From Candidatus Eiseniibacteriota bacterium (lineage in GTDB: Bacteria; Eisenbacteria; RBG-16-71-46; CAZAMP01): a DNA stretch of 64,000 nucleotides. Position numbers and translations under genes: made by a program. The notes beneath the pieces were generated by a model. That model had not been told where the DNA came from. It saw only the letters and a list, made by a program, of their open reading frames with translations, and ran no database searches. This document shows positions 37,767-53,525 of the stretch, one piece after another. Positions within the stretch are counted from its first letter, which is position 1, and the number at the start of each line of letters is the position of its first letter. The stretch spans positions 4,992,001 through 5,056,000 of the forward strand of contig OZ245046.1 of the NCBI GenBank assembly GCA_965224245.1, written 5' to 3'.

Positions 37767-39254
37767 ATGCCGGTTCGCAGGTCGCTCGTATCGCTCGCGC
37801 TCGTGCTGTGGACCGGATGCCTGTCGCGAGCGTCCGACCCGATCCCGGCGGTCGGCGGGCGCGGGCCGGCCGACCTGGCACCGGGGCGCGACTCCGTGGT
37901 GCGCCTGGAGGACGGGACGCTCGCCATGCTGCCGTTCGCCCATCTCGCGCTCGACGCACTCCGGGAGTGCAGCGGCCTGGTTCGGCAGGGCGACGCGTTC
38001 TTCGCCCACAACGACAGCGGGGATGCGCCGGTGCTCTATCGCTCGACAACCCTCGACTTCGCCGCCGCCCGGACGCTTGCCGTGCCCGGTGCGAAGGCGC
38101 GAGACTGGGAGGACATCTGCACGATCGGCGACGACCTCCTCGTGTTCGACATCGGGGACAATCGCCGCGAGCGGAACGATCTCGTCATCTATCGCGTCCG
38201 CTATCGCGAGGCGAGGGGCGGGGAGCCCGGTCGGCTGGATCGGGTGGCGACGTACCCGATCGCGTATCCGAACGGCCGCCACGATGCCGAGGCGGGGTTC
38301 GCGATCGACGGCGTCGTCCACATCGTGTCCAAGGCGCGCGACGAGCGCGAGACGTTCGTCTATCGGTTCGACGTGCTCGAGGACGCGTCGGATCTGGCCT
38401 CCGGCATGCGGAACGTGCCTCGGCTGGTCGGCACCCTGGACGTCGGAGAGGGCGAGACCGTGACCGCGGGTACGTTCGATCCCGGCTCGGGCGAGGTGCT
38501 GCTCCTGACGTACTCCGCGGTGCTGGCGTACCCCGCGCACGCTCTCGCCGGCGCGCCGGCGACCCGCACCCGGATCTGGGCCCGGCAGTGCGAGTCCCTG
38601 TGCGCGGACGACGGACGCATCGTCATCACGAACGAGGAGCGGGACGTCTTCGTCGTGGACGCACGATTGCTCCGATCGTCGGCCTCGCTCTCGCCACCGC
38701 GTGCCCGCCTGACGCTGTCCGCGGAGGAGGCGACGCCGATTCCACTCCACGGCGCCGCGCCCGGGGACGCGCTGGGGTGGCGCCGAGAGGGCGACGCTCT
38801 CCACCTGCGGTTCGCGTTCGCACTCGACGACAGCGTAGCCGCGACGTCCATCGATCCCGTGCGGCTCGGGGGCGCGATCCTCTTCGTGTTCGGCGACGAC
38901 GAGACGACGCGGATCGGCGCCGGGCACGCGCTCGTGGCCGTCGGTCGGCGTCCCGACGGGACGTTTCACGCCTGGCGCGGTGACGGCGCCGGCGGGCTGG
39001 GCGCGCTGTCCCCGTTCGACGCCGCGGTGGTGACGGCCGCCGTGAGCGAAGGGTCCGGGTCACCCGTACTCGCGGGAGAGATCGTGCTCCCGCTCGCCGC
39101 CGTGGTCGAGGATCCCGACTCGTTCCTGTTCGACGCGCGCACGATCGGGCTGCGCGACGACGACGGACCGTACGTCTCGGGCCTCGGCTCATACTCGATG
39201 TATCGACCCTACACGTGGGCCGTCGTGCGCACGACGTCTCCCGTGTCCGGCTGA
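37767..39254 (+). CDS. Uncharacterised beta-propeller lipoprotein with C-terminal beta-rich domain
   Basis: Lipobox WTGC; 'ECSGL..HNDSG', 'DWEDI', 'DIGDN', 'DAEA'. Confidence 0.75.
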   Translation: MPVRRSLVSLALVLWTGCLSRASDPIPAVGGRGPADLAPGRDSVVRLEDGTLAMLPFAHLALDALRECSGLVRQGDAFFAHNDSGDAPVLYRSTTLDFAAARTLAVPGAKARDWEDICTIGDDLLVFDIGDNRRERNDLVIYRVRYREARGGEPGRLDRVATYPIAYPNGRHDAEAGFAIDGVVHIVSKARDERETFVYRFDVLEDASDLASGMRNVPRLVGTLDVGEGETVTAGTFDPGSGEVLLLTYSAVLAYPAHALAGAPATRTRIWARQCESLCADDGRIVITNEERDVFVVDARLLRSSASLSPPRARLTLSAEEATPIPLHGAAPGDALGWRREGDALHLRFAFALDDSVAATSIDPVRLGGAILFVFGDDETTRIGAGHALVAVGRRPDGTFHAWRGDGAGGLGALSPFDAAVVTAAVSEGSGSPVLAGEIVLPLAAVVEDPDSFLFDARTIGLRDDDGPYVSGLGSYSMYRPYTWAVVRTTSPVSG

Positions 39255-39321
39255 GCCGGCGGACGACCGGACCCGCCGACCGCGCACGGCCGCGCATTCG
39301 CCGTCGGAAGGAGTGTTGGAG

Positions 39322-39879
39322 ATGTTTCGCACGTTCGCGTGGGTTCTCGTGCTGGCTCAGCTGCTTTCGCCCGCGGCGGCGTCCGCGGAGGACAGGATCG
39401 GATTCGTGGACTCGGGGACCGTTCTCCAGCGTCATCCCGACCGACCGGCGGCCGAGGAGAGCATGCGCGCGTTCCGCGCGGAGCTCGATGCGCGCATGGC
39501 GGAGATGCGCGCCGAGCACACGTCGCGGGTGAACGCCTTCCGCGCCGCCCAGGACGCCGGCCAGCCCGATCAGGCGCTGTTCGACTCGGTCAAGGCGTAC
39601 GAGGAGCAGATCGACGCGTTTCTCGACGAGTCGCAGAGCGAGATCGAGCGCCGGGAGTCCGACCTGATGCAGCCCATGGTCGACGACGCCAACCGGGTCA
39701 TCGCGAGGATCGCCGAGGCCGAGGGGTTCACGTGCGTGCTCGACACGTCCAGCGGCGCCGTGGTCTACATTGACACCGCGAACGACATCACGATTCGCGC
39801 AATCCAGTCGCTGAGGGCCGAGGCCGAGGCCGAGTCCGCGGCGAGCCCCGGGTCGGACGAGGATGGCTCGGGGAGATAG
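39322..39879 (+). CDS. skp: OmpH/Skp periplasmic chaperone
   Basis: Signal peptide; 'IGFVD', coiled coil, 'IA..EGFT.VLD', 'DIT'. Confidence 0.85.
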   Translation: MFRTFAWVLVLAQLLSPAAASAEDRIGFVDSGTVLQRHPDRPAAEESMRAFRAELDARMAEMRAEHTSRVNAFRAAQDAGQPDQALFDSVKAYEEQIDAFLDESQSEIERRESDLMQPMVDDANRVIARIAEAEGFTCVLDTSSGAVVYIDTANDITIRAIQSLRAEAEAESAASPGSDEDGSGR

Positions 39880-39941
39880 CTCAGCTCGACCCCGGTCCAC
39901 CTGTCGCTCGTGCGGCTCGCGGGTCGGCGTCCCGGCGAGTG

Positions 39942-39950
39942 TGCTAGGAT
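39942..39950 (+). promoter_or_regulatory. Extended -10 (TGcTAGGAT) for the DUF6754 cluster
   Basis: TGnTAnnnT overlapping the in-frame ATG at 39949. Confidence 0.45.
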
Positions 39951-39990
39951 GCCCGGCGTCGCCGTTTCGCTCCTCACGCTGGAGGACCGA

Positions 39991-40881
39991 CTGAACACAC
40001 CTCGCATCCGCGCGCGCGTGCTGGGCATCGCGCTCGCCGCCGGCCTGACCACCGCCGCGCCGCCCGCCCTGGCCCAGGGCGAGGGCGAAGATCCGGCATC
40101 CGCCGAGGCGGCGACCGGCTGGTTCACGCCCAGCACGCTTCCCGTCGCGGTCGGCGTCGTGGTGTTCGGTTGTCTGGTGGTGGGCTTCGTGGGTCTGGCG
40201 CAACGCGGACAGAAGTTCTACATCCGGCGCATCCCGGGGCTGGAGGCGGTCGAGGAGGCGGTCGGCCGCGCCACCGAGATGGGACGCCCCATCCTGTTCA
40301 GCCCCGGTCTCGAGGTGATGGACGAGGTGGCCACGGTCGCCGCGATGAACGTGCTCGGCGAGGTCGCTCGCCGCGTGGCCAACTACGGAACCCCCATCCT
40401 GGTTCCGAACCGCGATCCGATCGTCATGACGGTCGCGCAGGAGGTGGTCCGAAACGCCTACCTGGCCGAAGGCGTACCCGATCGCTACCGATCCGAGGAC
40501 ATCTACTACACGACCCAGAGCCAGTTCGGCTACGCGGCCGCGGTCTGCGGCACCATGATCCGCGAGCGTCCGGCGGCGAACTTCTTCTTCGGCCGGTTCT
40601 ACGCCGAGAGCCTCGTGCTGGCCGAGACCGGCAACATGACCGGCGCGATCCAGATCGCCGGAACCGACGCCGATGCCCAGCTCCCGTTCTTCATCTGTGC
40701 GTGCGACTACACGCTCATCGGTGAGGAGCTGTATGCGGGGTCGGTGTATCTGTCGCGCGAGCCGCTGCTCCTCGGCGCGCTGAAGGCCCAGGACGTGGGC
40801 AAGCTCATCGTCATGATCCTCCTGGTGGTCGGATGCGCGCTCGCGGTGATCGGCGTCGACCTGCCCGCGATCGCGCAGTGA
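39991..40881 (+). CDS. DUF6754-like membrane protein (start uncertain: CTG 39991 or ATG 39949)
   Basis: 'IRRIPGLEAVEEAVGRATEMGRP', 'AESLVLAETG', 'QLPFFI.ACDYTLIGEELYA', 'LKAQD'. Confidence 0.8.
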   Translation: MNTPRIRARVLGIALAAGLTTAAPPALAQGEGEDPASAEAATGWFTPSTLPVAVGVVVFGCLVVGFVGLAQRGQKFYIRRIPGLEAVEEAVGRATEMGRPILFSPGLEVMDEVATVAAMNVLGEVARRVANYGTPILVPNRDPIVMTVAQEVVRNAYLAEGVPDRYRSEDIYYTTQSQFGYAAAVCGTMIRERPAANFFFGRFYAESLVLAETGNMTGAIQIAGTDADAQLPFFICACDYTLIGEELYAGSVYLSREPLLLGALKAQDVGKLIVMILLVVGCALAVIGVDLPAIAQ

Positions 40882-40901
40882 GAGGGGTCGATCGTCGATG
40901 A
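40878..40901 (+). other. Bridging mini-ORF (VRGVDRR*)
   Basis: GTG 40878 overlaps TGA 40879-40881; its TGA 40899-40901 overlaps ATG 40898. Confidence 0.5.
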
Positions 40902-41542
40902 AGACCACGCTCCCCCTCGTATTCGGGTTCCTGGTCGGGGTCGTGATGCTGATCCAGTACTTCACGCCAAGCCAGACCATGCTGACCGCCTACAACGAGA
41001 TCCTCGACTGGAAGCAGATCGTCATCGGCATGACGTTCATCCTGGGCGTGTACTCGTTGATGCAGTACCACGGCCGGAAGATCTCCGCGCGCCGGGAAGG
41101 CTGGGGCTACTCGGTGGTGGCGGTGATCGGCTTCGCGGCGATGGTGCTGCTCGGGGTGCTCAACGTGTTCAGTGACACCAAGCGGCCGTTCACGTGGATG
41201 TTCGACAACGTGCAGGCGCCGATGCAGGCCACGATGTTCTCGCTCCTGGCGTTCTACGTGGCGTCGGCGTCGTACCGCGCGTTCCGGGCCCGATCCGGCC
41301 ACGCGACGATGCTGCTGGTGGCCGGTGTCGTGGTCATGCTCGGCCGCGTGCCGCTGGGTGAGTACTTTGCGATCCCGGGTACGAATGCGAGCATTCCATC
41401 GCTGGCGGACTTCGTCCTCGACGTTCCGAATCTCGCGGCCAAGCGCGGCATTCTGATCGGTGTGGGGCTGGGCATGGTGGCCACCGCGATGAAGATCCTC
41501 CTCGGCATCGAGCGGACGTACCTCGGAAAGGGCAGTCAATGA
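40898..41542 (+). CDS. Polytopic membrane protein of the DUF6754 cluster
   Basis: About 5-6 TM segments; 'ATMFSLLAFYVASASYRAFRAR', 'KRGILIGVGLG..KILLGIER'. Confidence 0.85.
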   Translation: MKTTLPLVFGFLVGVVMLIQYFTPSQTMLTAYNEILDWKQIVIGMTFILGVYSLMQYHGRKISARREGWGYSVVAVIGFAAMVLLGVLNVFSDTKRPFTWMFDNVQAPMQATMFSLLAFYVASASYRAFRARSGHATMLLVAGVVVMLGRVPLGEYFAIPGTNASIPSLADFVLDVPNLAAKRGILIGVGLGMVATAMKILLGIERTYLGKGSQ

Positions 41543-41592
41543 CGCACGTAGGGGTCCGATCCCGGCCGCGCCGCGGTGGAGATCGACGATGA
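41539..41592 (+). other. Bridging mini-ORF (MTHVGVRSRPRRGGDRR*)
   Basis: ATG 41539 overlaps TGA 41540-41542; its TGA 41590-41592 overlaps ATG 41589. Confidence 0.5.
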
Positions 41593-42476
41593 CGAGCATC
41601 GCGGGACACGACGACCAGCGTCACGACGGCTTCGCCGATCGACTCCTCCATCTCGATCGGCGGATCATCTTCCTGTGCGTCGCGCTCGCGGTGATCATCC
41701 CCATCATCCGGCCCATCGGGATGCCCATCAAGTCGTCCAAGGAGGCCGAGGACTTCATCGCCGCGCTGGAGGAGGTGAAGCCCGGTGAGGTCGTGATGTT
41801 CTCGTTCGACTACGAGGCGGACGTGCGTGCCGAGCTGGACCCGATGGCGATCACCACCTTCCGTTACTGCTTCGACCACGACATCAAGATCGTCGCGTTG
41901 ACGAACTACGCCGGTGGCCCGGGCATCGCCGAGGCCGTGTACCGTCCCGCAATGGAGGAGTTCGGCAAGACCTACGGCGAGGACTTCGTCTTTCTCGGCT
42001 ACAACACCGACTGGCAGGGCACGATGCTCCGGATGGGCGAGTCCATCCGCGCCACGTTTCCGGCCGACCACTACGGAGCCCGCACCGACGGGATGTCCAT
42101 CCTCGACGGTGTCGACTCGTACGCCGACATCCCGCTCCTCGTGTCGGTGGCCGGCAGCGCGCTCGCCGAGTACTGGGCGATCTTCGCCGGAGGCAAGTAC
42201 CAGCAGAAGGTGATCACCGGCAACACGGCCATCCAGGCCATCCTCGTCTACCCGTACTACAACGCGGGGCAGATCTCGGGCTTTCTCGGCGGCCTGAAGG
42301 GCGCCGCCGAGTTCGAGAAGCTGGCCGGGTACTCCGGTGACGCGACCCTGGGCATGGACGCGCAGAGCACGGCGCACGGCCTGATGGTCGTGTTCATCCT
42401 GCTCGGCAACGTCGCGTTCTTCCTTCAGCGACGACAGCGCGGCCGCGATGCGCACGCGGGAGGATCGGCCACATGA
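41589..42476 (+). CDS. Membrane-anchored alpha/beta protein of the DUF6754 cluster
   Basis: N- and C-terminal TMs; 'PYYNAGQISG.LGGLKGAAEFE', 'MDAQS.AH'. Confidence 0.85.
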   Translation: MTSIAGHDDQRHDGFADRLLHLDRRIIFLCVALAVIIPIIRPIGMPIKSSKEAEDFIAALEEVKPGEVVMFSFDYEADVRAELDPMAITTFRYCFDHDIKIVALTNYAGGPGIAEAVYRPAMEEFGKTYGEDFVFLGYNTDWQGTMLRMGESIRATFPADHYGARTDGMSILDGVDSYADIPLLVSVAGSALAEYWAIFAGGKYQQKVITGNTAIQAILVYPYYNAGQISGFLGGLKGAAEFEKLAGYSGDATLGMDAQSTAHGLMVVFILLGNVAFFLQRRQRGRDAHAGGSAT

Positions 42477-43096
42477 ACGTCGAGAGCATCGGCGTCCTCA
42501 TCGCCGCCTTCTTCACACTGGCGATCTTCAGCTTCCTGTACCGGGAGAATCCCGTCTACCGCTTCGCCGAGCATCTCCTGGTGGGGGTCTCGGCGGGCTA
42601 CTACCTCGTGCAGTTCTGCATCGCCGCCATCTACCGCAAGCTCTACGTGCCGATCGCCGACGACGGCCACTGGACGCTCGTCTTCGGCGGGATCCTCGGG
42701 TTCCTGATGCTGTTCCGCTTCTCACGCCGCACGGAGTGGATCTCGCGCTTCTCCCTCGCCTTCTACGTGTCGGCGGGCGCCGGCTACATCATCCCGAACA
42801 TCCTGAACGCGCAGGTGCTTGAGCAGGTGCAGGCCTCCTTCCTGTCACCGGCGGGAACGGTGTCGGCCTGGGCCACCGTGAAGGAGCTCCTGATCGTGGT
42901 GGGCGTGCTGTCGATTCTCGTCTACTTCTTCTTCTCGAAGCCGCACAAGGGCGCAACCTCCGCGGTGGCGAAGGTGGGCATCGCGTTCCTGATGGTAGGC
43001 TTCGGCGCCTCGTTCGGCTACACGGTCATGGGACGCGTGACGCTCCTCATCGGTCGCATCACGTTCCTGCTGCGAGACGTCCCCCAGGCCTTCTGA
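42473..43096 (+). CDS. Polytopic membrane protein of the DUF6754 cluster
   Basis: 'TLAIFSFLYRENP.YRFAEHL.VGVSAGY', 'FLMVGFGASFGYTVMGR'; ATGA overlap. Confidence 0.85.
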   Translation: MNVESIGVLIAAFFTLAIFSFLYRENPVYRFAEHLLVGVSAGYYLVQFCIAAIYRKLYVPIADDGHWTLVFGGILGFLMLFRFSRRTEWISRFSLAFYVSAGAGYIIPNILNAQVLEQVQASFLSPAGTVSAWATVKELLIVVGVLSILVYFFFSKPHKGATSAVAKVGIAFLMVGFGASFGYTVMGRVTLLIGRITFLLRDVPQAF

Positions 43097-43151
43097 GTCT
43101 CCGCCCGACGGCAACCGCCCGCCGACCGCCGATCGCGACGACCGGCGCCGA

Positions 43152-46100
43152 TCACGGGGACGCGACCGTGAGCTTCTCGCGGGCCACGATCCGCCTGGCG
43201 TCGCCCGAGACGAACTCGAGTCGCACGAAGTAGACGCCCGCGGGCGCGGCACGTCCCGACGGCGTGCTCAGATCCCACACGACCGCGTGCTCGCCCCGCT
43301 CGACCGGTCTCGTGCCGGACGACCAGACGCGACGCCCGTCGACCGCGAACACGTCGACCACGGCCGATCCGTCGCCGGGCACCCGATAGTGGAGCCGGGT
43401 GGACGCCGAGACGGGGTTGGGACGCGACAGGAGCCACACGCCGGGGGACGTCGGCCGGGAGGCTGCGTCGGCGCGGGCAACCAGCTCGAAGCGATGTTCG
43501 CCGGGGTCGACGTCGAGCGAGCGAAGCGTGCCGAGATCCCACTCGATGCCCGTTCCGTCCTCGCGCAGCGTGACCGCGTGGCGGCCCGCCCCACCGCCGT
43601 CGAGCGCGAAGGCCAGCGTCGTGGGCCTCGACGCCGTCAGCGTGACCGTCCACGCGACGACGTCCGACGAGAGACCGGCGACGCTCTGCCGGTACCGCCT
43701 CGGCAGCGTTAGGGCAGGCGGGGAGTCGGGTCGACCGATCCAGAGATCCATCTCCTCGCCGGGAGCCGGGGGCGCGGCGGCACGATCCAGGGGATCCCAG
43801 TCGTCGCGCGCCTTCGCGTCCCGACCCAGGACGATCGTCCGGGTGGCGGCGTGCTCGGGCTCCGCCGTCCGCTCCCGTGCGGAGACGAGGACGCGTAGGG
43901 CCCACACCGCGCCGGTCGGCTCGGGAGCGCGGCCGACGGATCTCGCCGCCCCGGTGCCCACGACCTCCCCGGCCGGGATCATCAGCGTGAGGGGCCGCGC
44001 GACCAGGTTCAGCACCCAGCAGCCCGACGAGGCGGGAAGGTCGTCCGACATGACGTACGCGTCGCCCACGCGCTGGTACACGTCCTGACCGACGAGCGTG
44101 CCGGCATCGCTGAACGCGACCGGATCGCTGGCGCCGTCCCGGATCATCATCGCGTCGGGATCCACGAGCACGTCGTAGGCGGCGGGATTACCCACCATCG
44201 TCCAGTTGGATGGGAGGAGCGGGACCTCGAAGAAGCCCGGCTCCGCGGGCCAGCTCGTCGAGCCGAGGACCGACCACGGGTGAGACGTGCGTGTGGCGAG
44301 CCAGAACCCGGCGCCGGGCTCCACGTCGAAGGGCGTGGAGCCGTCCAGACGCTCGTACGCCGTCGTGATCCGGCGATGAAGGAACCAGGTCGTATCGCTC
44401 GACGGGCCGCCGAACACGGCCTCCAGCGCCGCGATCACGTCGTCGTCCTCGATGCCGATCGCCGGCAGTCCGATCATGTGGTGGCGGAGATCGCGATTGG
44501 GCGGCATGCCGGCGCCGGTCGTCACCGATGCGCGCCGAGGCGCGGCCGGTGTCCCGACCTGGAGCTCGCCGCCGTCGTCGATCGTCAGCGTCGCGACGTA
44601 CTCGAATCCCCGGATCGACGCGGACGCATCAACCGTCCAGTCCGGGCCGTCGAGCGTCATCTCCAGCGGGTCGCCGTACCCGTCCTCGCCGCCGAGTCGC
44701 CGGACGATCGACGCGGCGATGACCGACGCGGTCCCCACGTCGGGGTTCGGCAGCCTCATGACGACCCCTCCCGGGCCGGAGGTCACGGTGGCGTCGGCCA
44801 CGTCGACGGTCCTGACGCGGACCGACTCGGAGTAGCCGAAGTAGTCGACCGTGATCGTGGCCTCGCCGGCGGACACCCCCTCGAGCCGACCGGGCTCCAC
44901 CGAGACGACGCCGGGATCGGACGAGGACCAGAGGGCCAGTGCCGTGACGTCGGCCGTCCCGCCTCCGTCGAGCAGCAGGATCGCGTCGACCTCGGCCGTC
45001 ATGCCGACGGCGAGGTAGAGATCCGACTCGCTCAGCTCGAAGCCCACCGCGTCCTCGGCGATCACGGTGACGGTCACGGTGACGCCCGGCGAGACGTTGC
45101 CGGCCGCGTCGATGGCGGAGATGCGATACGAGTAGTCCTGATCGGTGATCAGGTCGGCGTGGTTGATCGTCGACTCCGTCGTGGTGAAGAAGATGAGCTC
45201 CTCGCCGTCGGCGAAGGACGTGGGCGGGGCGGATCCCTCCCTCCAGCGCACGACCGAGCCGACGGCGTCGGCGGGCAGGCTCCAGGTGATCGCGACCCCG
45301 TTGCCGCCGCTACGCGCGGTGACGTCGAACGGATCGGCGGGCGGCACGTCGTCGTCCTGCCGGATGGCCACGTCCCAGGGCTGCTCTCCGTCGGTGGCGA
45401 AGACCGTGGTCTGGGCATCGTCACCGCACGTCTGCACGTTCACGCGCTGCATGTCTCGATCGGCGAAGAACAGTCGGTCGCCGACCGGATCGTATGCCAC
45501 CCCCTCGGTCTCGGCCTGGGTCAAGAAGCACGCGTCGGACGAGTGGGACGTCCAGTCGCCCGTGATGTCGATGCGATGAATCGTGCCCTGATTCGCCGCG
45601 TCACGTTCGGTCCAGTAGAGCGTGCCCGCGATCGGATCGATGTCGATTGCCTCCACCTCCTCGGGGACGATGAGCGTCTTCGTGGTGGGCACCGCGTCGT
45701 CCAGGGTCGCGAGATCGATCGACGTGATCTGCCCGCCATCGGCGTGAGCCGAGCACCAGAAGATCCGGTTGCGCCAGAGATCGAGGGCGACGTCGTTGGG
45801 CTGGGTCGCCGTGCTGTCGACGATCGCGATGGGTGAGTGTCCGGCGTCCTGACCGTCGATGTGGCCGTAGAAGACGCCTCGGAACATCGGGTCGCTCGGA
45901 TTGCCGGCGTCGCACTGCGTACCGCCGCCGCGCGCGGCCCAGTAGACGCGCTGGCGGAAGGGGTCGACCGCCACGCCCTTGGCGCCGCACCAGTCGTACA
46001 GCAGGCGCCGTTCCCCGGTGCTCGGGTCGACAGTCAGAACCTCGTCCTCGCCGCGCTGGGTGACGAAGATCTGCCTAGTCAGGGGCTCCCACGCGATGCG

Positions 46101-47486
46101 CTGTGCGCTGGACAGGTCCTGAGCCAGGACGTCCGTGTAGCCGCGTCCGATCCGGGTGGCGCCGAGGAAGTTGCTCTCCGCGTCGCTGGGCGCGAGTCCC
46201 GTCCAGTAGACCGTCGCCGTGCCGCCTCCCGGCTCGCCGCGGGTGATCGTGATCGTGGACCGATACGGGCGGGCGACGCTCAGGTTGCCATCCTCGTCCT
46301 CGAAGAACAGCGCATACGAGACGACGTCATCCGCGGTGGGATGGACGACCTCGGTGGCGTCGTCGACGAAGAGCACGGCCGGCGCTCCCTCGAAGGGATT
46401 TCCCGGAGGTATGAAGCCCGGTCTCCACCGGATCACGGTGGTCGCCACCAGGCTCGTGTCCGGCGGTGCCGCCCAGCGAAGCCGGACCCCCGACGGCGTC
46501 GCGGCGCCCGAGGCGGCGAACACCCGCGGAGGCGGGCGCCGATCCAGCCGCTCGACGACGATGTCGCCCGGGAGCGACCCGTCCGGAAGCGCGTGGTCGG
46601 GCGTCGTCAGGACCACCGGTCCGGTCGCGTCCAGATCGGCCACGAGGATGGCCGGTGCGCTCGGACTGCGATCGGTCCAGTACAGTCGACGCGCCTCGGA
46701 GTCGATGAACAGGCCCCGCGGCGACGTGTCGCCCACGTCGTAGCGCGCGAACAGGACGGGTCCGCCGCTCCCGTCGGCCGCATGCGAGTAGATGCCCCTC
46801 CCCGAGCTCTGGGTCGAGGTCCAGAAGACGCGGTCGGACTCGGGGTCGTAGTCGACGTCCCAGATGACGCCCGCACTGGAGACGATCTGGGTGGAGCCAT
46901 TGGGATCGGTCCGCCAGATCGCCTGGACCGGCAGCTCCTTCTGACCCCAGTACAGCGCGTTGGTGCGAAGGTCGGCGACCAGCCCCCTGGGTCCGAGGAG
47001 GTCACCGACCACGGTGATCTGCCCGGTCCCGTCCGTGGCCCGGCGGACGACCGAGCCGAGTATGGGCGGCGAGGCGTCGTCCCGCCCGGTCTCCAGCCAG
47101 AAGACGTCTCCCCGGAAGCGGTCGACCGCGATCGCTTCGGGGTTTGCCGACTCCAGGAGCGGCGTGCCGAACGGCTCGTGCACGAACACGTCGGTCCCGG
47201 TCACCGGCGTGCGGTAGAGCGCGTCGGGGTTCGCACTCATCCAGTAGAGCATGCCGGAGCGCCGATCGAAGGCGAGCCCGTCGTTCGCGTCGCTGGCGAT
47301 CGCGGCGATTCCGAGAGGTGTGGTCGAGTCGTCCTCGTTGATCCGGTAGATCTCGTCGACGGCCGGATTCGCATCCACCCAGTAGATGTGGCGGCCGGTC
47401 TCGGCCTGTCCGCGCCCGGCGATCCCGATCAGAAGCGCGAGGGCGGCGTGCGCGGCGATGACGCGCGGACGTGTCGAAGCGGTCAT
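43152..47486 (-). CDS. Large secreted protein: two YWTD (LDLR class B-like) propellers each followed by FN3, then Big_2-like Ig and FlgD-Ig tail
   Basis: LYWMS, VFWLE, LYWGQ, VFWTS, LYWTD, VYWAA, IFWCS, LYWTE; 'WSSSDPGVVSV'; tail 'PNP..GVYFVRL'; SD GGAGGAGG. Alternative GTG at 47510. Confidence 0.85.
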   Translation of the reverse strand: MTASTRPRVIAAHAALALLIGIAGRGQAETGRHIYWVDANPAVDEIYRINEDDSTTPLGIAAIASDANDGLAFDRRSGMLYWMSANPDALYRTPVTGTDVFVHEPFGTPLLESANPEAIAVDRFRGDVFWLETGRDDASPPILGSVVRRATDGTGQITVVGDLLGPRGLVADLRTNALYWGQKELPVQAIWRTDPNGSTQIVSSAGVIWDVDYDPESDRVFWTSTQSSGRGIYSHAADGSGGPVLFARYDVGDTSPRGLFIDSEARRLYWTDRSPSAPAILVADLDATGPVVLTTPDHALPDGSLPGDIVVERLDRRPPPRVFAASGAATPSGVRLRWAAPPDTSLVATTVIRWRPGFIPPGNPFEGAPAVLFVDDATEVVHPTADDVVSYALFFEDEDGNLSVARPYRSTITITRGEPGGGTATVYWTGLAPSDAESNFLGATRIGRGYTDVLAQDLSSAQRIAWEPLTRQIFVTQRGEDEVLTVDPSTGERRLLYDWCGAKGVAVDPFRQRVYWAARGGGTQCDAGNPSDPMFRGVFYGHIDGQDAGHSPIAIVDSTATQPNDVALDLWRNRIFWCSAHADGGQITSIDLATLDDAVPTTKTLIVPEEVEAIDIDPIAGTLYWTERDAANQGTIHRIDITGDWTSHSSDACFLTQAETEGVAYDPVGDRLFFADRDMQRVNVQTCGDDAQTTVFATDGEQPWDVAIRQDDDVPPADPFDVTARSGGNGVAITWSLPADAVGSVVRWREGSAPPTSFADGEELIFFTTTESTINHADLITDQDYSYRISAIDAAGNVSPGVTVTVTVIAEDAVGFELSESDLYLAVGMTAEVDAILLLDGGGTADVTALALWSSSDPGVVSVEPGRLEGVSAGEATITVDYFGYSESVRVRTVDVADATVTSGPGGVVMRLPNPDVGTASVIAASIVRRLGGEDGYGDPLEMTLDGPDWTVDASASIRGFEYVATLTIDDGGELQVGTPAAPRRASVTTGAGMPPNRDLRHHMIGLPAIGIEDDDVIAALEAVFGGPSSDTTWFLHRRITTAYERLDGSTPFDVEPGAGFWLATRTSHPWSVLGSTSWPAEPGFFEVPLLPSNWTMVGNPAAYDVLVDPDAMMIRDGASDPVAFSDAGTLVGQDVYQRVGDAYVMSDDLPASSGCWVLNLVARPLTLMIPAGEVVGTGAARSVGRAPEPTGAVWALRVLVSARERTAEPEHAATRTIVLGRDAKARDDWDPLDRAAAPPAPGEEMDLWIGRPDSPPALTLPRRYRQSVAGLSSDVVAWTVTLTASRPTTLAFALDGGGAGRHAVTLREDGTGIEWDLGTLRSLDVDPGEHRFELVARADAASRPTSPGVWLLSRPNPVSASTRLHYRVPGDGSAVVDVFAVDGRRVWSSGTRPVERGEHAVVWDLSTPSGRAAPAGVYFVRLEFVSGDARRIVAREKLTVASP

Positions 47487-47506
47487 GCGTGTCACCTCCT
47501 CCGGGA

Positions 47507-48397
47507 TCACCAGCGCAGGATCCAGGCGATCGGTCCCAGGCCGGGCGGCGGCGGCGGGTTCGGGTCCAGGCGGTCGGGCTCTTGCTCCCCGTTCTTCTCG
47601 TCGCCCTTGAACAGAAGGTATCCGCCGACGCCCGCGGCGGCGACACCGGCCACGATCGCGACGGTCCTGAGGATGGAGGATCCATCCTCGTCGCTGGGCG
47701 TCACCAGCGTGACCGGGATCCTCTGCTCGCGCGCACCATCGATCGTGAACACGAGCGCGGCGGCGGCGGCGCCCACGACGTCGCTCGCGCCGGGTCCGGG
47801 CGTCACCCGCACCTCGGCGGCTCCCGACGCCGCGGTCCCGTTCCTCGGTGTCACCGAGAGCCAGGACGGAGGCGTCTGCAGCGACCAGGTGAACGCCCGA
47901 CCATCGGCCGACGCCAGCGTGAGCGTCCGGACGAGTTCGCCGTCCTCCCGATCACCGCGCAGCTCGAGGCTCTCGGGCGTGATCGTGACGCGGATGGGCC
48001 GGCTGGCGCGCGCCTCCTCGAGGAGCGAACGCTCGGTCATGCCGCCGGGCTCGGGCTGGAACGTGGGCAGCTCCTCCAGCAGCGCGCGGTACTCGGACAG
48101 GGCGCTCTCGCGATCACCCATCGATACGAAGATCTGCGCGCGGAGATCTCGAACCTCCGCGCGACACACCGGATCGAGCGACGAGAGATCCAGACCACGG
48201 ACGGTGTCGAGCGCGCGCTCGAACTGAGCTTCGTCGTAGAACAGCGAGACCGCGCGGGCGATGTCGGGGTCGCCGGCGGCGCAATCGTCGATGCGCGCGG
48301 CCGCCGCCGCCGTCGCGGACAGTGCGGCGACGCCGAGGGCGAGGCACGTGGTCTGCGCCCGCCGGCGGACGGTCGCGAGTCGTGTCGATGTCTGCAT
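47507..48397 (-). CDS. Exported TPR-like plus BACON-like protein with C-terminal hydrophobic Gly/Pro-rich tail
   Basis: Signal peptide; helical N-terminus; 'WS...PSWLSVTP..G'; 'VAIVAGVAAAGVGGYLL'. Confidence 0.75.
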   Translation of the reverse strand: MQTSTRLATVRRRAQTTCLALGVAALSATAAAAARIDDCAAGDPDIARAVSLFYDEAQFERALDTVRGLDLSSLDPVCRAEVRDLRAQIFVSMGDRESALSEYRALLEELPTFQPEPGGMTERSLLEEARASRPIRVTITPESLELRGDREDGELVRTLTLASADGRAFTWSLQTPPSWLSVTPRNGTAASGAAEVRVTPGPGASDVVGAAAAALVFTIDGAREQRIPVTLVTPSDEDGSSILRTVAIVAGVAAAGVGGYLLFKGDEKNGEQEPDRLDPNPPPPPGLGPIAWILRW

Positions 48398-48427: not shown

Positions 48428-51181
48428 TCAGTTGGCGATCATCCGGAACTCCACCATGACCGTATCACCCGGCGCCAGTCGCACGTCACCAAACTCGGGC
48501 TCCGACCGGTGGCCGTCGCGCGACACCGTGACGCGGTAGGGCCGCTCCCGCCACTCGAGCTCGAGGGCGGGCACGGGCGTGCGAATCGGTCCGCCGGCGC
48601 CGGTGAGCGGCTCACCATCGATCGACACCGGATCTCGTCCCCCGCTCACGATGCGGACGTAGCCGACGTCCGGCGTCGCGTCGAAGGTGATGGCCTCGAC
48701 GCCGCCGTCGACGGCGCGGACCGACCGCCTGGCCGGCGAGAACCGATGTCCCAGCTTGGAGACGGTGACGTCGATCTCGTCGTCCGTCGTCGTGACGTCT
48801 GCCCGGAACGGCAACCGAACGCTCTCGTAGAGTCGATCGCCGATCCGGACGTCGACGTCGGTGAGCCGGCCGGCGGCCACGCGAACGGTGAACGTCTTCT
48901 CGCGCGGGGTCGGCGGCACGTCCCGATCCCACGGCTTCTCGTCGAGCCGCACGTGGGTCGCGAAGTCCTGCCCGGGGTCGATGCGGATGGACGACGTCGA
49001 CGGCTCGAACCCGCTCTTGCCGACCTCGAGTCGGCCCTCCAGCCGCGCGTCGGTGTCGATCCGATAACGCTCGATGGGAGTGGTGCCCAGTGAGCGCCCG
49101 TCGAAGACGACGGAGGCGCCCGTCGGTGTGCTGGTCACGCTCAGGGTCACGTAGGTGCGGACGAGCTGGATCGGCGGTACGCGCGTGGCTCGACCCCCGA
49201 CGACGTCGATCGATCGCGTCTCCGCGCGGTAGCCGGCGTGCTCCGCTCGAACCGTGTACGTGCCGGCGGGCAGCGAGTCGACCGCACCGGCAGCCAGCGT
49301 GACGCCGGTCTCGACGATCCGAACGGTCGCGTCCCCCGGCGTCACCGCGACCAGGGCGATGGTGCCGACCGTGGAGGTGGGCGTCTGGATCTCCGCGTCG
49401 GGCCAGAGCGCCCAGACGCCGAGCAAGACGACCACGACCGCCGTGAGTGCGGCGGGGAGCACCCACCGGCGCCGAGCCGGCGCGGCCGGCGACCCGGGTG
49501 CCGTCCTCGCCGGCGCGACCACCGGCGTCGGCATCACCGGCGGTGCCGGCGACTCCGCGGTCGGACCCGGAGAGCTGCGCGACCTCGACGCGTCCGCCCC
49601 CGCGAGCGATCCCGATCCGGAGCGCGAGCCCGACCCCGGATCCGACCCGGACGCCGAATCCGTCCCGGACGCGAGACCCGTCCCCGTCGAGACGTCGGAC
49701 CCCGAATCGACACCGGTCCCGGACCCGAGATCCGCCCCCGACGTGACGTCGGACCCCGACGTGACGTCGGACCCCGACGTGACGTCGGACCCAGCTTCGA
49801 CATCCGACCCGGTGTCGCTCGTGCCCGGTTCCGATCCGGGTCGTGAGCCCGATCCGGGGTCGGACTCGGGGCGAGACGACGACGTCGGCGTCCTGGCCAC
49901 GATCGTCGGATCGTCGTCCGCCTCGGGTGTCGGCAGTGGGGTCGGCGTGAACTGCGTGGCGTCGTCGTCCACCGTCGTCGAGCGAGAGGCCGCACTGGAC
50001 CTGAGCGTGACGTCGGGGTCCACCTCCACGCCGGTATCGAGCAGGTCCCCGACGCCCGAGTCCTCGATGATGCGCGTCTCGTCCGGAGTGAGAACCTCGC
50101 GCAGGTCCTGAACGTTCTGCCGGCGCAGCATCTGCCGGATGTCGTTCATGACCGCCATTGCTTCCTCGTTGCCCTTGTCCACGTACAGCACGACGGTGAT
50201 CGCCTTGAGGGCGTCGATCGCCTTGCGCTCGCCGAACGCGATCAGGTTGTGCGCCTTGTACAGGTATCGCCTGGCCACCTGCCGCCGCATCGCGCCCGAG
50301 ACCCCGAGAGGATCGCGCACGAACTCCTCGAGCAGTCTCCGGCGGCGCGGGATGTTCAGTCCGTCGACGAAGCGTTCCATCCACTCCCGGACGTCGCCGG
50401 TATCCGCCGGCCGACCCGAGGGCTCCTTGGCCAGGAGGCAGTGCACGAACTCGCTCAGCTCGGGGGTCACGAGCGGATTCCGTTCGTCGAGCCGTACCGG
50501 CTCGTCCCGCACGATCGCGGTATGAATCGCGATGGCGGATCGCCCCTGGAACGGGCGCTGGTTCGCAAGGAGCTGGTACGCGATGACGCCGAACGCGAAC
50601 AGGTCGGCGCGGAAGTCGACCTCGTCCGACACGATCTGCTCGGGGGCCATGTAGGCCGGGGTGCCGAGACTCTGACCGGTCGACGTGACGTTCGAGACGT
50701 CGATCGTGGACTTGGCCAGGCCGAAGTCACCGATCTTGGCCACACCGTCGCGTGAGATGAGAATGTTCGAGGGCTTGAGATCGCGGTGCAGGACACCCCT
50801 CGCGTGCGCCACCTCGAGTCCGCGCACGATCTGGAGCAGGAGGAGCGATGCGACCTCGAGCGGCATCGGCGACACCGACTTGATCATCTGATCCAGCGTC
50901 GGTCCGTCGACGAACTCGAGCACCATGAACGGCGGCCGATTGGAGCGAGAGTACTCGATGACGCCGACGATGTTCTCGCTGTGGAGTCCCGCCGCCGATC
51001 GGGCTTCGATCTCGAAGCGCTTCAGGAACTCCTCGCCGTCCGCCAGGTGCGGGTGGATCGTCTTGACGGCGCGGACGGCACCGATCGACAGCTGCCGGGC
51101 CGCATAGACGGTCCCCATCGCGCCGTGATCGATGCGTCGGAGAATCTCGTAGCCGGGAATGTCGGGAAGGTCGTTGGACAT
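48428..51181 (-). CDS. Transmembrane Ser/Thr kinase with extracytoplasmic PEGA domains
   Basis: HRDLKPSN, DFG, GTPAYMAPEQ; TM; 'S.P.GA.V..DG..LG.TP'; start ATG 51181. Confidence 0.92.
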   Translation of the reverse strand: MSNDLPDIPGYEILRRIDHGAMGTVYAARQLSIGAVRAVKTIHPHLADGEEFLKRFEIEARSAAGLHSENIVGVIEYSRSNRPPFMVLEFVDGPTLDQMIKSVSPMPLEVASLLLLQIVRGLEVAHARGVLHRDLKPSNILISRDGVAKIGDFGLAKSTIDVSNVTSTGQSLGTPAYMAPEQIVSDEVDFRADLFAFGVIAYQLLANQRPFQGRSAIAIHTAIVRDEPVRLDERNPLVTPELSEFVHCLLAKEPSGRPADTGDVREWMERFVDGLNIPRRRRLLEEFVRDPLGVSGAMRRQVARRYLYKAHNLIAFGERKAIDALKAITVVLYVDKGNEEAMAVMNDIRQMLRRQNVQDLREVLTPDETRIIEDSGVGDLLDTGVEVDPDVTLRSSAASRSTTVDDDATQFTPTPLPTPEADDDPTIVARTPTSSSRPESDPGSGSRPGSEPGTSDTGSDVEAGSDVTSGSDVTSGSDVTSGADLGSGTGVDSGSDVSTGTGLASGTDSASGSDPGSGSRSGSGSLAGADASRSRSSPGPTAESPAPPVMPTPVVAPARTAPGSPAAPARRRWVLPAALTAVVVVLLGVWALWPDAEIQTPTSTVGTIALVAVTPGDATVRIVETGVTLAAGAVDSLPAGTYTVRAEHAGYRAETRSIDVVGGRATRVPPIQLVRTYVTLSVTSTPTGASVVFDGRSLGTTPIERYRIDTDARLEGRLEVGKSGFEPSTSSIRIDPGQDFATHVRLDEKPWDRDVPPTPREKTFTVRVAAGRLTDVDVRIGDRLYESVRLPFRADVTTTDDEIDVTVSKLGHRFSPARRSVRAVDGGVEAITFDATPDVGYVRIVSGGRDPVSIDGEPLTGAGGPIRTPVPALELEWRERPYRVTVSRDGHRSEPEFGDVRLAPGDTVMVEFRMIAN
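49736..49792. repeat. 18-bp tandem repeat, three copies (encodes GSDVTS)
   Basis: CCCCGACGTGACGTCGGA three perfect copies inside a Ser/Gly-rich linker. Confidence 0.9.
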
Positions 51182-51410
51182 GCGTGGAACATCTCGCGAC
51201 TGCCGTCTCGGGAGCGAGCCCGAACGCACGCGTGCGATCCGAGCTGACATACGATATCACATTGGGAGGGCGAGCGTTCCGGGGAGACCGGGGAATGGGC
51301 AGGGGCTCGTCGGAGGGGAAGCCGCTGCGGATGGAGACGACTGGGAGCCGGGATGAACGCGGCCCCACCCGCAGCGAAACGGGTGAAACGTGGGGATCGG
51401 CGACCGCGGA

Positions 51411-52613: not shown

Positions 52614-53525
52614 ATGATGACCGAACTCGGCATTGGCCTCCTCGGCGTGGCGCTCGGCATCGCCGCCGGCCCCCGGCTGCGCGCGCTCGTGCGCCGCGTG
52701 GCCCGCGACCGCGGCGGCGACCCCACGACGCCGCCCGGCGGCTCCCAGCGCCGGATCCATCTGGTCGGGCCCCCGACCGACGAGAGCGAGCACCTGGACA
52801 AGATGGCGGCCATCGGCATGCTCGCCGCCGGGATCGCCCACGAGATCAAGACGCCGCTCGGCGCGGCCACGAGCATGCAGGAGACGCGAAAGCGCGCCCA
52901 GACGAAGCTCCTGGCCGCGGTGGAGAACGGCGACGACGAGACCGACGAGGACGGGTCGGCCAAGCTCCTCGGCATCATCGGCGACGCCGACGAGGTGATC
53001 GACACCGCACTCGAGCGCGTGGCCGCGATCGTGAACGAGCTGCGGCAGGTCGCCCGTCACGAGGCGTCCGAGCCCGAGCGGCTCGACGTCACCGAGCCCA
53101 TCGAGAGCGCGCTCACCCTGGCCTGGCACAAGCTGAAGGGACGGGTGACCATCGAGCGGGACTTCGCCCCCCGCGCGGACGTGATCGGGCATCCCGGCAA
53201 GCTGAGTCAGGTGTTCCTGAACCTCTTCGTGAACGCCGCGCAGGCCATCGAGGACTCGGGGACGCTTCGCATCACCGTGACGCGGGACGAGAACCGCGTC
53301 CGGGTCGACGTCACCGACACCGGTAGCGGGATCGATCCCTCCCGGCTGGATGCGATCTTCGAGATGGGCTTCACGACCAAGTCGGCCGCCGAGGGTACGG
53401 GTCTCGGTCTGGCGATCTCCCGCCGGATCGTCGAAGCGCACGGCGGGACGCTGTCGGTGTCGAGCGCACCGGGCACGGGATCCACGTTCACGGTCTCGCT
53501 CCCCGCCGCGGACTCGGTGGCGTGA
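52614..53525 (+). CDS. Histidine kinase with a single N-terminal TM and no evident sensor domain
   Basis: 'GIAHEIKTPLG', 'NLFVNAAQA', 'DTGSGI', 'FTTK..GTGLGL'. Confidence 0.9.
   Translation: MMTELGIGLLGVALGIAAGPRLRALVRRVARDRGGDPTTPPGGSQRRIHLVGPPTDESEHLDKMAAIGMLAAGIAHEIKTPLGAATSMQETRKRAQTKLLAAVENGDDETDEDGSAKLLGIIGDADEVIDTALERVAAIVNELRQVARHEASEPERLDVTEPIESALTLAWHKLKGRVTIERDFAPRADVIGHPGKLSQVFLNLFVNAAQAIEDSGTLRITVTRDENRVRVDVTDTGSGIDPSRLDAIFEMGFTTKSAAEGTGLGLAISRRIVEAHGGTLSVSSAPGTGSTFTVSLPAADSVA

Follow-up and report, generated by a model that had tools for sequence, protein, structure and literature searches.

A 64,000-nucleotide (nt) stretch of the genome of a Candidatus Eiseniibacteriota bacterium (contig OZ245046.1, positions 4,992,001 to 5,056,000 of the forward strand; hereafter the window) carries four consecutive genes for predicted membrane proteins, here called A, B, A' and B', the first of which encodes a DUF6754 protein. 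The four genes constitute a conserved membrane module which, at the level of whole genomes, is partnered with two soluble proteins, one GlmL-like and one of 374 amino acids (aa) that we call p374; we hold this as very probable. Our favoured reading, to which we give a probability of roughly 45%, is that the four genes encode an exchangeable membrane module of an undescribed machine that is probably energised in trans. It is favoured because the genes are collinear and under strong constraint, occur in paralogous copies, are linked to the soluble pair, are fused in some relatives and encode variable outside parts.

Four collinear genes and their soluble partners

Gene A ends at window position 40881 on the + strand and has three candidate starts (39910, 39949 or 39991, discussed below), its product being 323 aa long when counted from the first of these, a GTG. 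It is followed on the same strand by B (40898-41542; 214 aa, polytopic, with six predicted transmembrane (TM) segments), A' (41589-42476; 295 aa, bitopic) and B' (42473-43096; 207 aa, polytopic, with about six TM segments). The third-position GC content of the four open reading frames (ORFs) is 0.89-0.94, the same as that of the surrounding real genes. All four are real genes, and the consecutive A-B-A'-B' layout described in an earlier sequence-only reading of this DNA is borne out. That reading had called the set a four-gene DUF6754 membrane complex. A membrane set of no known family it is, but DUF6754 applies only to A, which matches the Pfam profile (PF20539) with 375.7 bits (gathering score 27 bits; E value 1.2e-112) over residues 69-317, spanning 249 of the 257 profile positions. 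B, A' and B' retrieved 0 families each from Pfam at E<=0.01 and none from NCBIfam, and 119 of the 120 relatives of B listed are without any Pfam domain. None of the four proteins matches an ATPase, redox or transporter family in Pfam or NCBIfam, in agreement with the absence of such motifs noted before, and the PADLOC-DB defence models yielded 0 families for all four at E<=0.1. Searches of solved chains by sequence returned none for A, B or B' at E<=1, and the best match of A' had an E value of 0.11. B has 6230 relatives at E<=0.001 among the 8000 candidates scored, and the ESM Atlas placed B and B' in unnamed clusters only, some of them labelled Bacillota, Chloroflexota or Bathyarchaeota, which we take as leads only. 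Membership in any characterised family could not be shown for the module.

A scan of one genome per species gave at least 613 pattern matches, at least 596 of them encoding relatives of A, and the best 79 loci were analysed. They come from Eisenbacteria, WOR-3, Poribacteria, Zixibacteria, Ignavibacteria, Edwardsbacteria, Stahlbacteria, Fermentibacteria, Cloacimonadota, Scalindua, Nitrospirota, a Desulfuromonadaceae genome and others. The sequence-only reading had proposed such a gene-neighbourhood survey, with failure to co-occur as the result that would speak against it; the four genes do co-occur, and 67 of the 79 loci have A-B-A'-B' as an unbroken series on one strand. Two further loci contain all four genes in an interrupted order, and nine end at a contig edge less than 3 kb after A, two of these (L004 and L019) having 1.4-1.7 kb of downstream sequence without B. 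Junctions in 47 clean loci mostly measure -4 to +10 nt. Compared across phyla with their counterparts in the window, A homologs are 46-64% identical, B homologs 34-61%, A' homologs 31-59% and B' homologs 39-62%. A retains 45 invariant columns in 48 sequences, and its DUF6754 domain contains many invariant charged residues. In a tree, the window's A groups with those of the Eisenbacteria loci L001 and L002 and with L003 and L005 (support 100/98). Fusions of A' to B' are found in 6 of the 120 long B' homologs listed (P0265, P0275, P0279, P0320, P0340 and P0341), and no A-B fusion is found among the 120 long A homologs listed.

Four DUF6754 loci are present in the window's own genome (6.94 Mb, 97% complete). 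At each of the three outside the window, A is likewise accompanied by B, A' and B' in order, which gives four complete paralogous clusters in all. Within the phylum, DUF6754 is found in 109 of 121 genomes with 1-9 matches each (94 of 103 among the high-quality genomes), and it is found in 0 of 14 control (model) genomes. Some clusters lie in tandem, for example in L073, L074, L077, G122 and G125. The 121-genome counts here and below (DUF6754, p374 and ftsZ), as well as the Rnf/Nqr count, take in one unpublished genome, G015.

The paralogous cluster at locus L085, in the window's own genome (G000), is directly preceded by the genes for the GlmL-like protein and p374 (G000:C1:1480772-1483714; L085:5731-8718). 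The GlmL-like protein (L085:5731-7584) is a 617-aa member of the ASKHA family which matches PF13941 end to end (E value 9e-124; 414 bits against a cut-off of 27) and has a C-terminal extension of about 130 aa; compared by sequence with solved structures, it retrieved no match. p374 is a soluble protein of no family, with a weak match to the RnfC_N barrel-sandwich domain (E value 4.6e-4, below the cut-off). The best match of its profile among solved structures is RraA, at an E value of 0.024, and comparison with the profiles of A and A' gave no relation (probability 0.1%). Mean column identity of p374 is 68% in six sequences. The pair stands beside the cluster in 7 of the 79 loci, where identities are 42-70% for the GlmL-like protein and 48-54% for p374. 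No literature on DUF6754, PF13941 or TIGR01319 was found in a search whose scope excluded subscription journals.

p374 is found in 109 of the 121 phylum genomes, mostly as one copy per genome, and its distribution follows that of DUF6754: 108 genomes have both, 11 have neither and two are discordant. The 11 genomes with neither (G025, G026, G033, G037, G045, G055, G057, G061, G072, G097 and G117) are 85-96% complete and belong to several genera. One of the discordant genomes, G114 (88% complete), has a partial p374 match only; the other, G083, is taken up below. Since the phylum genomes are related, the co-occurrence count is no statistical test, and what it implies is several joint losses. 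In genomes with a single DUF6754 copy p374 is adjacent (e.g., G001, G005 and G008), and open frames of about 1000 aa at the p374 position in G001, G002, G004, G005, G031, G063 and G113 suggest, from sequence, GlmL-p374 fusions in these seven genomes. All of five genomes of other phyla (G121-G125) encode one copy of the GlmL-like protein and one of p374, against 1-6 copies of DUF6754; the genes lie side by side in G122 and G125 and are scattered in G121 and G123. In the poribacterial genome G121 the p374 match (G121:C1:4594426-4595540) comes in two pieces with a TAG inside, for which a frameshift, breakage of the gene and a mistake in the assembly are possible causes.

The core operon of the single-copy genomes begins with a GlmL-like, ATPase-like gene and p374, and these co-occur with the membrane genes genome by genome, which renders doubtful the earlier description of the set as ATP-independent. 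The link to this pair makes the finding better than was first thought. The membership of the GlmL-like protein in the ASKHA fold family also bears on a reading in which the four proteins serve as a membrane anchor for a cytoskeletal or division role of this actin-fold protein. One paralogous cluster of the window's own genome lies 2.3 kb after ftsZ, and one locus lies near a bactofilin gene; nevertheless, ftsZ is not beside DUF6754 in G043, G050, G056, G079, G081, G092, G104 and G110, among the matches listed, and nothing indicates that GlmL proteins polymerise. We consider an anchoring role extremely unlikely.

Predicted topology, folds and variable parts

Structure prediction covered A and A', and the topologies of B and B' were taken from hydropathy together with counts of lysine plus arginine (K+R). 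Orientation was predicted for all four proteins from alignment-averaged K+R counts near the membrane. A is bitopic and has a signal-peptide-like N-terminus followed by a short outside stretch, a TM helix at about residues 77-97, a Rossmann-like domain at about 108-283 and a second TM helix at about 299-318. A' has a TM helix at about 26-42, a Rossmann-like domain at about 49-247 and a TM helix at about 262-280, the latter bearing the invariant residues His263 and Asn274. The AlphaFold2 models, with predicted local distance difference test (pLDDT) scores of 83.6 for A and 94.0 for A', are alike: in both, a TM helix precedes a further helix and six beta/alpha units, after which a second, long TM helix follows. 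The K+R bias of A (6.1 on the domain side vs 1.6) predicts that its domain is cytoplasmic, and that of A' (6.9 at the termini vs 3.1) predicts that both termini are inside and the domain is outside. B is predicted to have its N-terminus inside and six TM segments (10.7 vs 4.5), and B' is weakly predicted to have its N-terminus outside (4.2 vs 5.8).

The sequence-only reading had described A and A' as having similar C-termini and the whole as pseudo-symmetric. Both of the C-terminal strings it quoted are present in the proteins, but they are no more than the approach to a TM helix. BLASTP found no relation between A and A' (best E value 0.92) or between B and B' (best E value 1.1), and hhalign comparison of 48-sequence profiles gave probabilities of 0.5% and 1.6%, respectively. 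With the alpha/beta domains of A and A' predicted on opposite sides of the membrane, the pseudo-symmetry is not supported: A and A' do not make a same-side pair, and if the two proteins are related they are inverted. A bolder reading makes of this a new superfamily of membrane machines with two topologically inverted halves: in A+B the Rossmann-like domain would face the cytoplasm, and in A'+B' a domain of like fold would lie outside. A single actin/Hsp70-fold (GlmL-type) ATPase per cell, neither P-loop nor rotary, would power up to nine exchangeable modules bearing different outside domains. If true, this would amount to a new principle by which energy is coupled to transport or to the transmission of force across the inner membrane of bacteria, and the GlmL family would acquire a task other than serving B12 enzymes; we judge it rather unlikely.

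Fold searches with A and A' returned flat lists of Rossmann-class matches at Z scores of 8-10 (201 and 46 chains, respectively, at Z>=8). The MTH777 structure (1kjn) is at or near the top for both, with Z 9.8 and a root-mean-square deviation of 3.4 over 133 residues for A, and Z 10.1 and 3.0 over 137 residues for A'. Other matches include RCK/KTN domains, sirtuins, transhydrogenase dIII and GT-B halves, all at sequence identities of 3-16%. The matches being flat and generic, they indicate a common fold class only and nothing on function. No GxGxxG after the first strand was noticed on reading the A and A' sequences, for which no motif search was made. What stands of the sequence-only reading is a conserved membrane set of no known transporter, enzyme or defence family, and what is not supported is that it is ATP-independent and pseudo-symmetric.

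One rival, which follows the sequence-only reading, is a stand-alone, ATP-independent (ion-coupled) transporter or channel, in which B and B' would form the path, A' would supply a tethered outside binding domain and A a cytoplasmic regulator of RCK/KTN type. B and B' are indeed two six-TM proteins of about 210 aa, the matches of A and A' at Z 8-10 include RCK/KTN gating domains and lobes of sugar-binding proteins, neither the window cluster nor most others adjoin an ATPase gene, and several paralogs per genome would suit several substrates. However, neither the Pfam and NCBIfam searches nor the sequence search of the PDB revealed any similarity to a transporter family, the fold matches are flat and generic, and the near-perfect co-occurrence with the GlmL-like protein and p374 would go unexplained. 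The large outside domains described next would also be unusual for a permease subunit. We regard a stand-alone transporter or channel as unlikely.

Longer relatives of A number 923 at E<=0.001 among the 8000 candidates scored. In the 15 of these scanned against Pfam, DUF6754 is always C-terminal, and the 0-1200 residues upstream of it contain Fn3 domains, BamB-like PQQ propellers or an RGI-lyase beta domain; in the 120 long A homologs listed, the match to A ends a median of 10 residues before the C-terminus. Two A homologs contain an A'-like domain in their N-terminal, outside part: P0086 (E value 9e-29), where this gives the layout A'-domain, TM, DUF6754, and P0080, with an hhalign probability of 99.2%. 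In B', the loop at about residues 113-135 receives insertions of 170-290 aa in homologs, and in P0267, P0270, P0274, P0309, P0350, P0354 and P0359 an EF-hand or PsbU/HHH_3 insertion lies between TM segments four and five. The A'-like domains in the outside part of A homologs and the insertions in the B' loop are independent observations, and both fit the predicted orientations.

In another reading the four proteins would be a transmembrane sensor, the variable outside domains (of A and the B' loop) binding signals that the conserved cytoplasmic domain would relay to the GlmL-like protein and p374. Variable outside parts (Fn3, propeller, EF-hand) set against a constant cytoplasmic domain are typical of receptors, and several paralogs per genome would be in keeping with this. 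Nevertheless, no known output or transmitter domain was found in Pfam or NCBIfam, the window's A has almost no outside domain, and four conserved membrane subunits exceed what known sensors need, making a sensor very unlikely in our view.

Starts, junctions and neighbours of the window cluster

The three candidate starts of A are all in frame: GTG at 39910, ATG at 39949 and CTG at 39991. The CTG is preceded by GGAGG and would yield a textbook signal peptide. The homologs leave the choice undecided, because their N-termini vary. According to the sequence-only reading, all three junctions of the cluster are translationally coupled. The elements on which this was based do exist, namely the ATGA overlap of A' and B' (42473-42476) and two bridging mini-ORFs on the + strand. 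The first of these (40878-40901, 7 codons) has a GTG overlapping the A stop and a TGA overlapping the B ATG, and the second (41539-41592, 17 codons) has an ATG overlapping the B stop (ATGA) and a TGA overlapping the A' start (ATGA). However, 16 nt separate A from B and 46 nt separate B from A', and each gap has a Shine-Dalgarno-like stretch of its own (GAGGGG and GGAG, respectively). Of 78 junctions in related loci whose gaps measure 8-120 nt, only 2 were found to have a bridging ORF. One of these is a 13-codon counterpart of the B-A' bridging ORF, at the same junction in the closest relative, L001 (L001:7425-7466). Given this rarity in related loci, we view the bridging ORFs as a local curiosity and not as a family trait; they may be termination-reinitiation relays or may have arisen by chance in GC-rich DNA. 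A scan of positions 39000-43600 found no promoter-like site and one terminator-like site, at 39104, which is no more than in shuffles.

Upstream of the cluster lies an OmpH/Skp gene (39313-39879; Pfam E value 1.1e-20), and downstream, in convergent orientation, a gene (43152-47510, - strand) encodes a 1452-aa secreted-looking protein with faint Pfam matches (LDL-receptor class B repeat, DUF3869), whose C-terminal 70 residues resemble those of L001 and L070 proteins. Further on are genes for a 940-aa Ser/Thr protein kinase with PEGA and CarboxypepD_reg domains (48428-51250, - strand) and a 913-aa protein (53522-56263, + strand) with a membrane part like the TLC ATP/ADP transporters and MFS proteins (E value 8e-14) joined to HEAT repeats. 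About 9 kb after the paralogous cluster of L085 lies a topoisomerase VI subunit A/Spo11-type gene (L085:16948-17922, - strand, G000:C1; PF21180, E value 3e-60). In the 16 loci examined for this purpose the neighbours differ, and no conserved neighbour was found beyond the GlmL-like/p374 pair; OmpH was found in 0 of the 79 related loci.

Neighbouring genes and fold matches together raise the question of a membrane enzyme or assembly complex for an envelope glycan or lipid, in which the Rossmann-like domains would be catalytic or carrier-binding. The matches to GT-B half-domains include LpxB (Z 10.2), MurG (Z 9.2) and PseG (Z 9.4), Foldseek matches A' to PimA (E value 4.7e-4), and the DUF6754 domain is rich in invariant charged residues. 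Additionally, Skp/OmpH is upstream in the window, a YaeI/LpxG-like phosphoesterase follows the L085 cluster, and LpxK, Wzi and PMT-type genes occur in some loci. None of these neighbours is conserved, however, and the fold matches are flat and span one Rossmann half only. An outside domain would moreover be without nucleotide-sugar donors, and we think an envelope enzyme quite unlikely, somewhat more so than a stand-alone transporter.

Proposed machine and comparison with known systems

In the favoured reading, that of an exchangeable membrane module energised in trans, A, B, A' and B' would form one hetero-oligomeric complex in the inner membrane. A would place its conserved DUF6754 domain in the cytoplasm and its variable N-terminal part outside, A' would contribute an outside Rossmann-like domain, and B and B' would add six and about six TM segments. 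The module would be part of a widespread and undescribed system with two further components, both soluble and single-copy: the GlmL-like protein and p374. We propose that this pair docks on the highly conserved cytoplasmic DUF6754 domain and drives a conformational cycle through a 16-helix membrane core to the outside domains. Nucleotide turnover would then drive transport or the transmission of force to those domains, and the system would be a machine for translocation or force transmission that runs on nucleotides and whose membrane modules are exchangeable. Of the ATP-driven machine as such we are less sure than of the favoured reading overall, and we advance it as a tentative, somewhat doubtful model.

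Several observations weigh against the favoured reading. No ATPase gene belongs to the window cluster itself; the GlmL-like and p374 genes of its genome are each single-copy and lie about 3.55 Mb away on the same contig, and the use of this distant pair in trans is inferred from co-occurrence in genomes that are related and hence not independent. G083, which is 98% complete, has DUF6754 without p374 at E<=1e-10. At L033, A stands alone (L033:5653-6777), with 6 kb downstream that are without B, A' and B'; that genome has a full cluster at its other locus, L006, and orphan copies of A therefore exist. The GlmL-like protein falls below the NCBIfam cut-offs for GlmL (223 vs 475 bits for NF040745 and 162 vs 204 bits for TIGR01319), and the role known for GlmL proteins is an accessory one with B12 mutases, not that of membrane energisers. 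No result obtained here indicates ATP hydrolysis or a nucleotide site in the GlmL-like protein. We would also like to note that the cluster's neighbours are unrelated housekeeping genes, which indicate no substrate.

Nearly all genomes of one phylum carry the system, which is also strongly conserved and frequent in many phyla that are poorly known, and three of its four membrane proteins, as well as p374, belong to no named family. Its function, once worked out, would annotate thousands of genes now called hypothetical and would open a way into the envelope biology of uncultured bacteria related to the FCB and PVC groups. A cytoplasmic ATPase fold may here be coupled in a new way to events beyond the membrane.

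Among known families, the uncharacterised Pfam family DUF6754 (PF20539) covers A only, and its entry contains no function and mentions neither B, A' and B' nor the GlmL-like/p374 pair. The GlmL/MutL proteins (PF13941, TIGR01319), which we take to be accessory proteins of glutamate (methylaspartate) mutase, resemble the GlmL-like partner in that it matches PF13941 throughout at 414 bits. The partner differs from them in being tied to membrane genes and not to a B12 mutase, in scoring below the NCBIfam cut-offs and in its C-terminal extension. RCK/KTN domains, sirtuins, transhydrogenase dIII, MTH777 and GT-B halves align with the domains of A and A' at the Z scores given above, without a match at the sequence level.

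Rnf and Nqr complexes contain two six-TM subunits of about 200 aa in opposite orientation. The likeness to the module is a loose one and comprises the two six-TM subunits of about 200 aa, a bitopic subunit with an outside domain and the weak RnfC_N match of p374. We rejected a relation: B and B' have no match to PF02508, and hhalign gave 0.1% and 0.4% with a crude Rnf alignment of poor quality (ORFs of 163-478 aa from 12 loci). No cysteine is invariant in B or B', and of 41 genomes of the phylum only 22 were found to have Rnf/Nqr.

The proposed working mode may be likened to that of shared energising modules, as in the group II ECF transporters or where a single ATPase serves many ABC permeases. 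The module is unrelated in sequence to ABC or ECF proteins, and the putative engine would have the ASKHA fold in place of a P-loop ABC ATPase. The likeness, drawn by analogy, would lie in the arrangement, with one soluble component per genome against one to nine membrane modules, scattered or in tandem.

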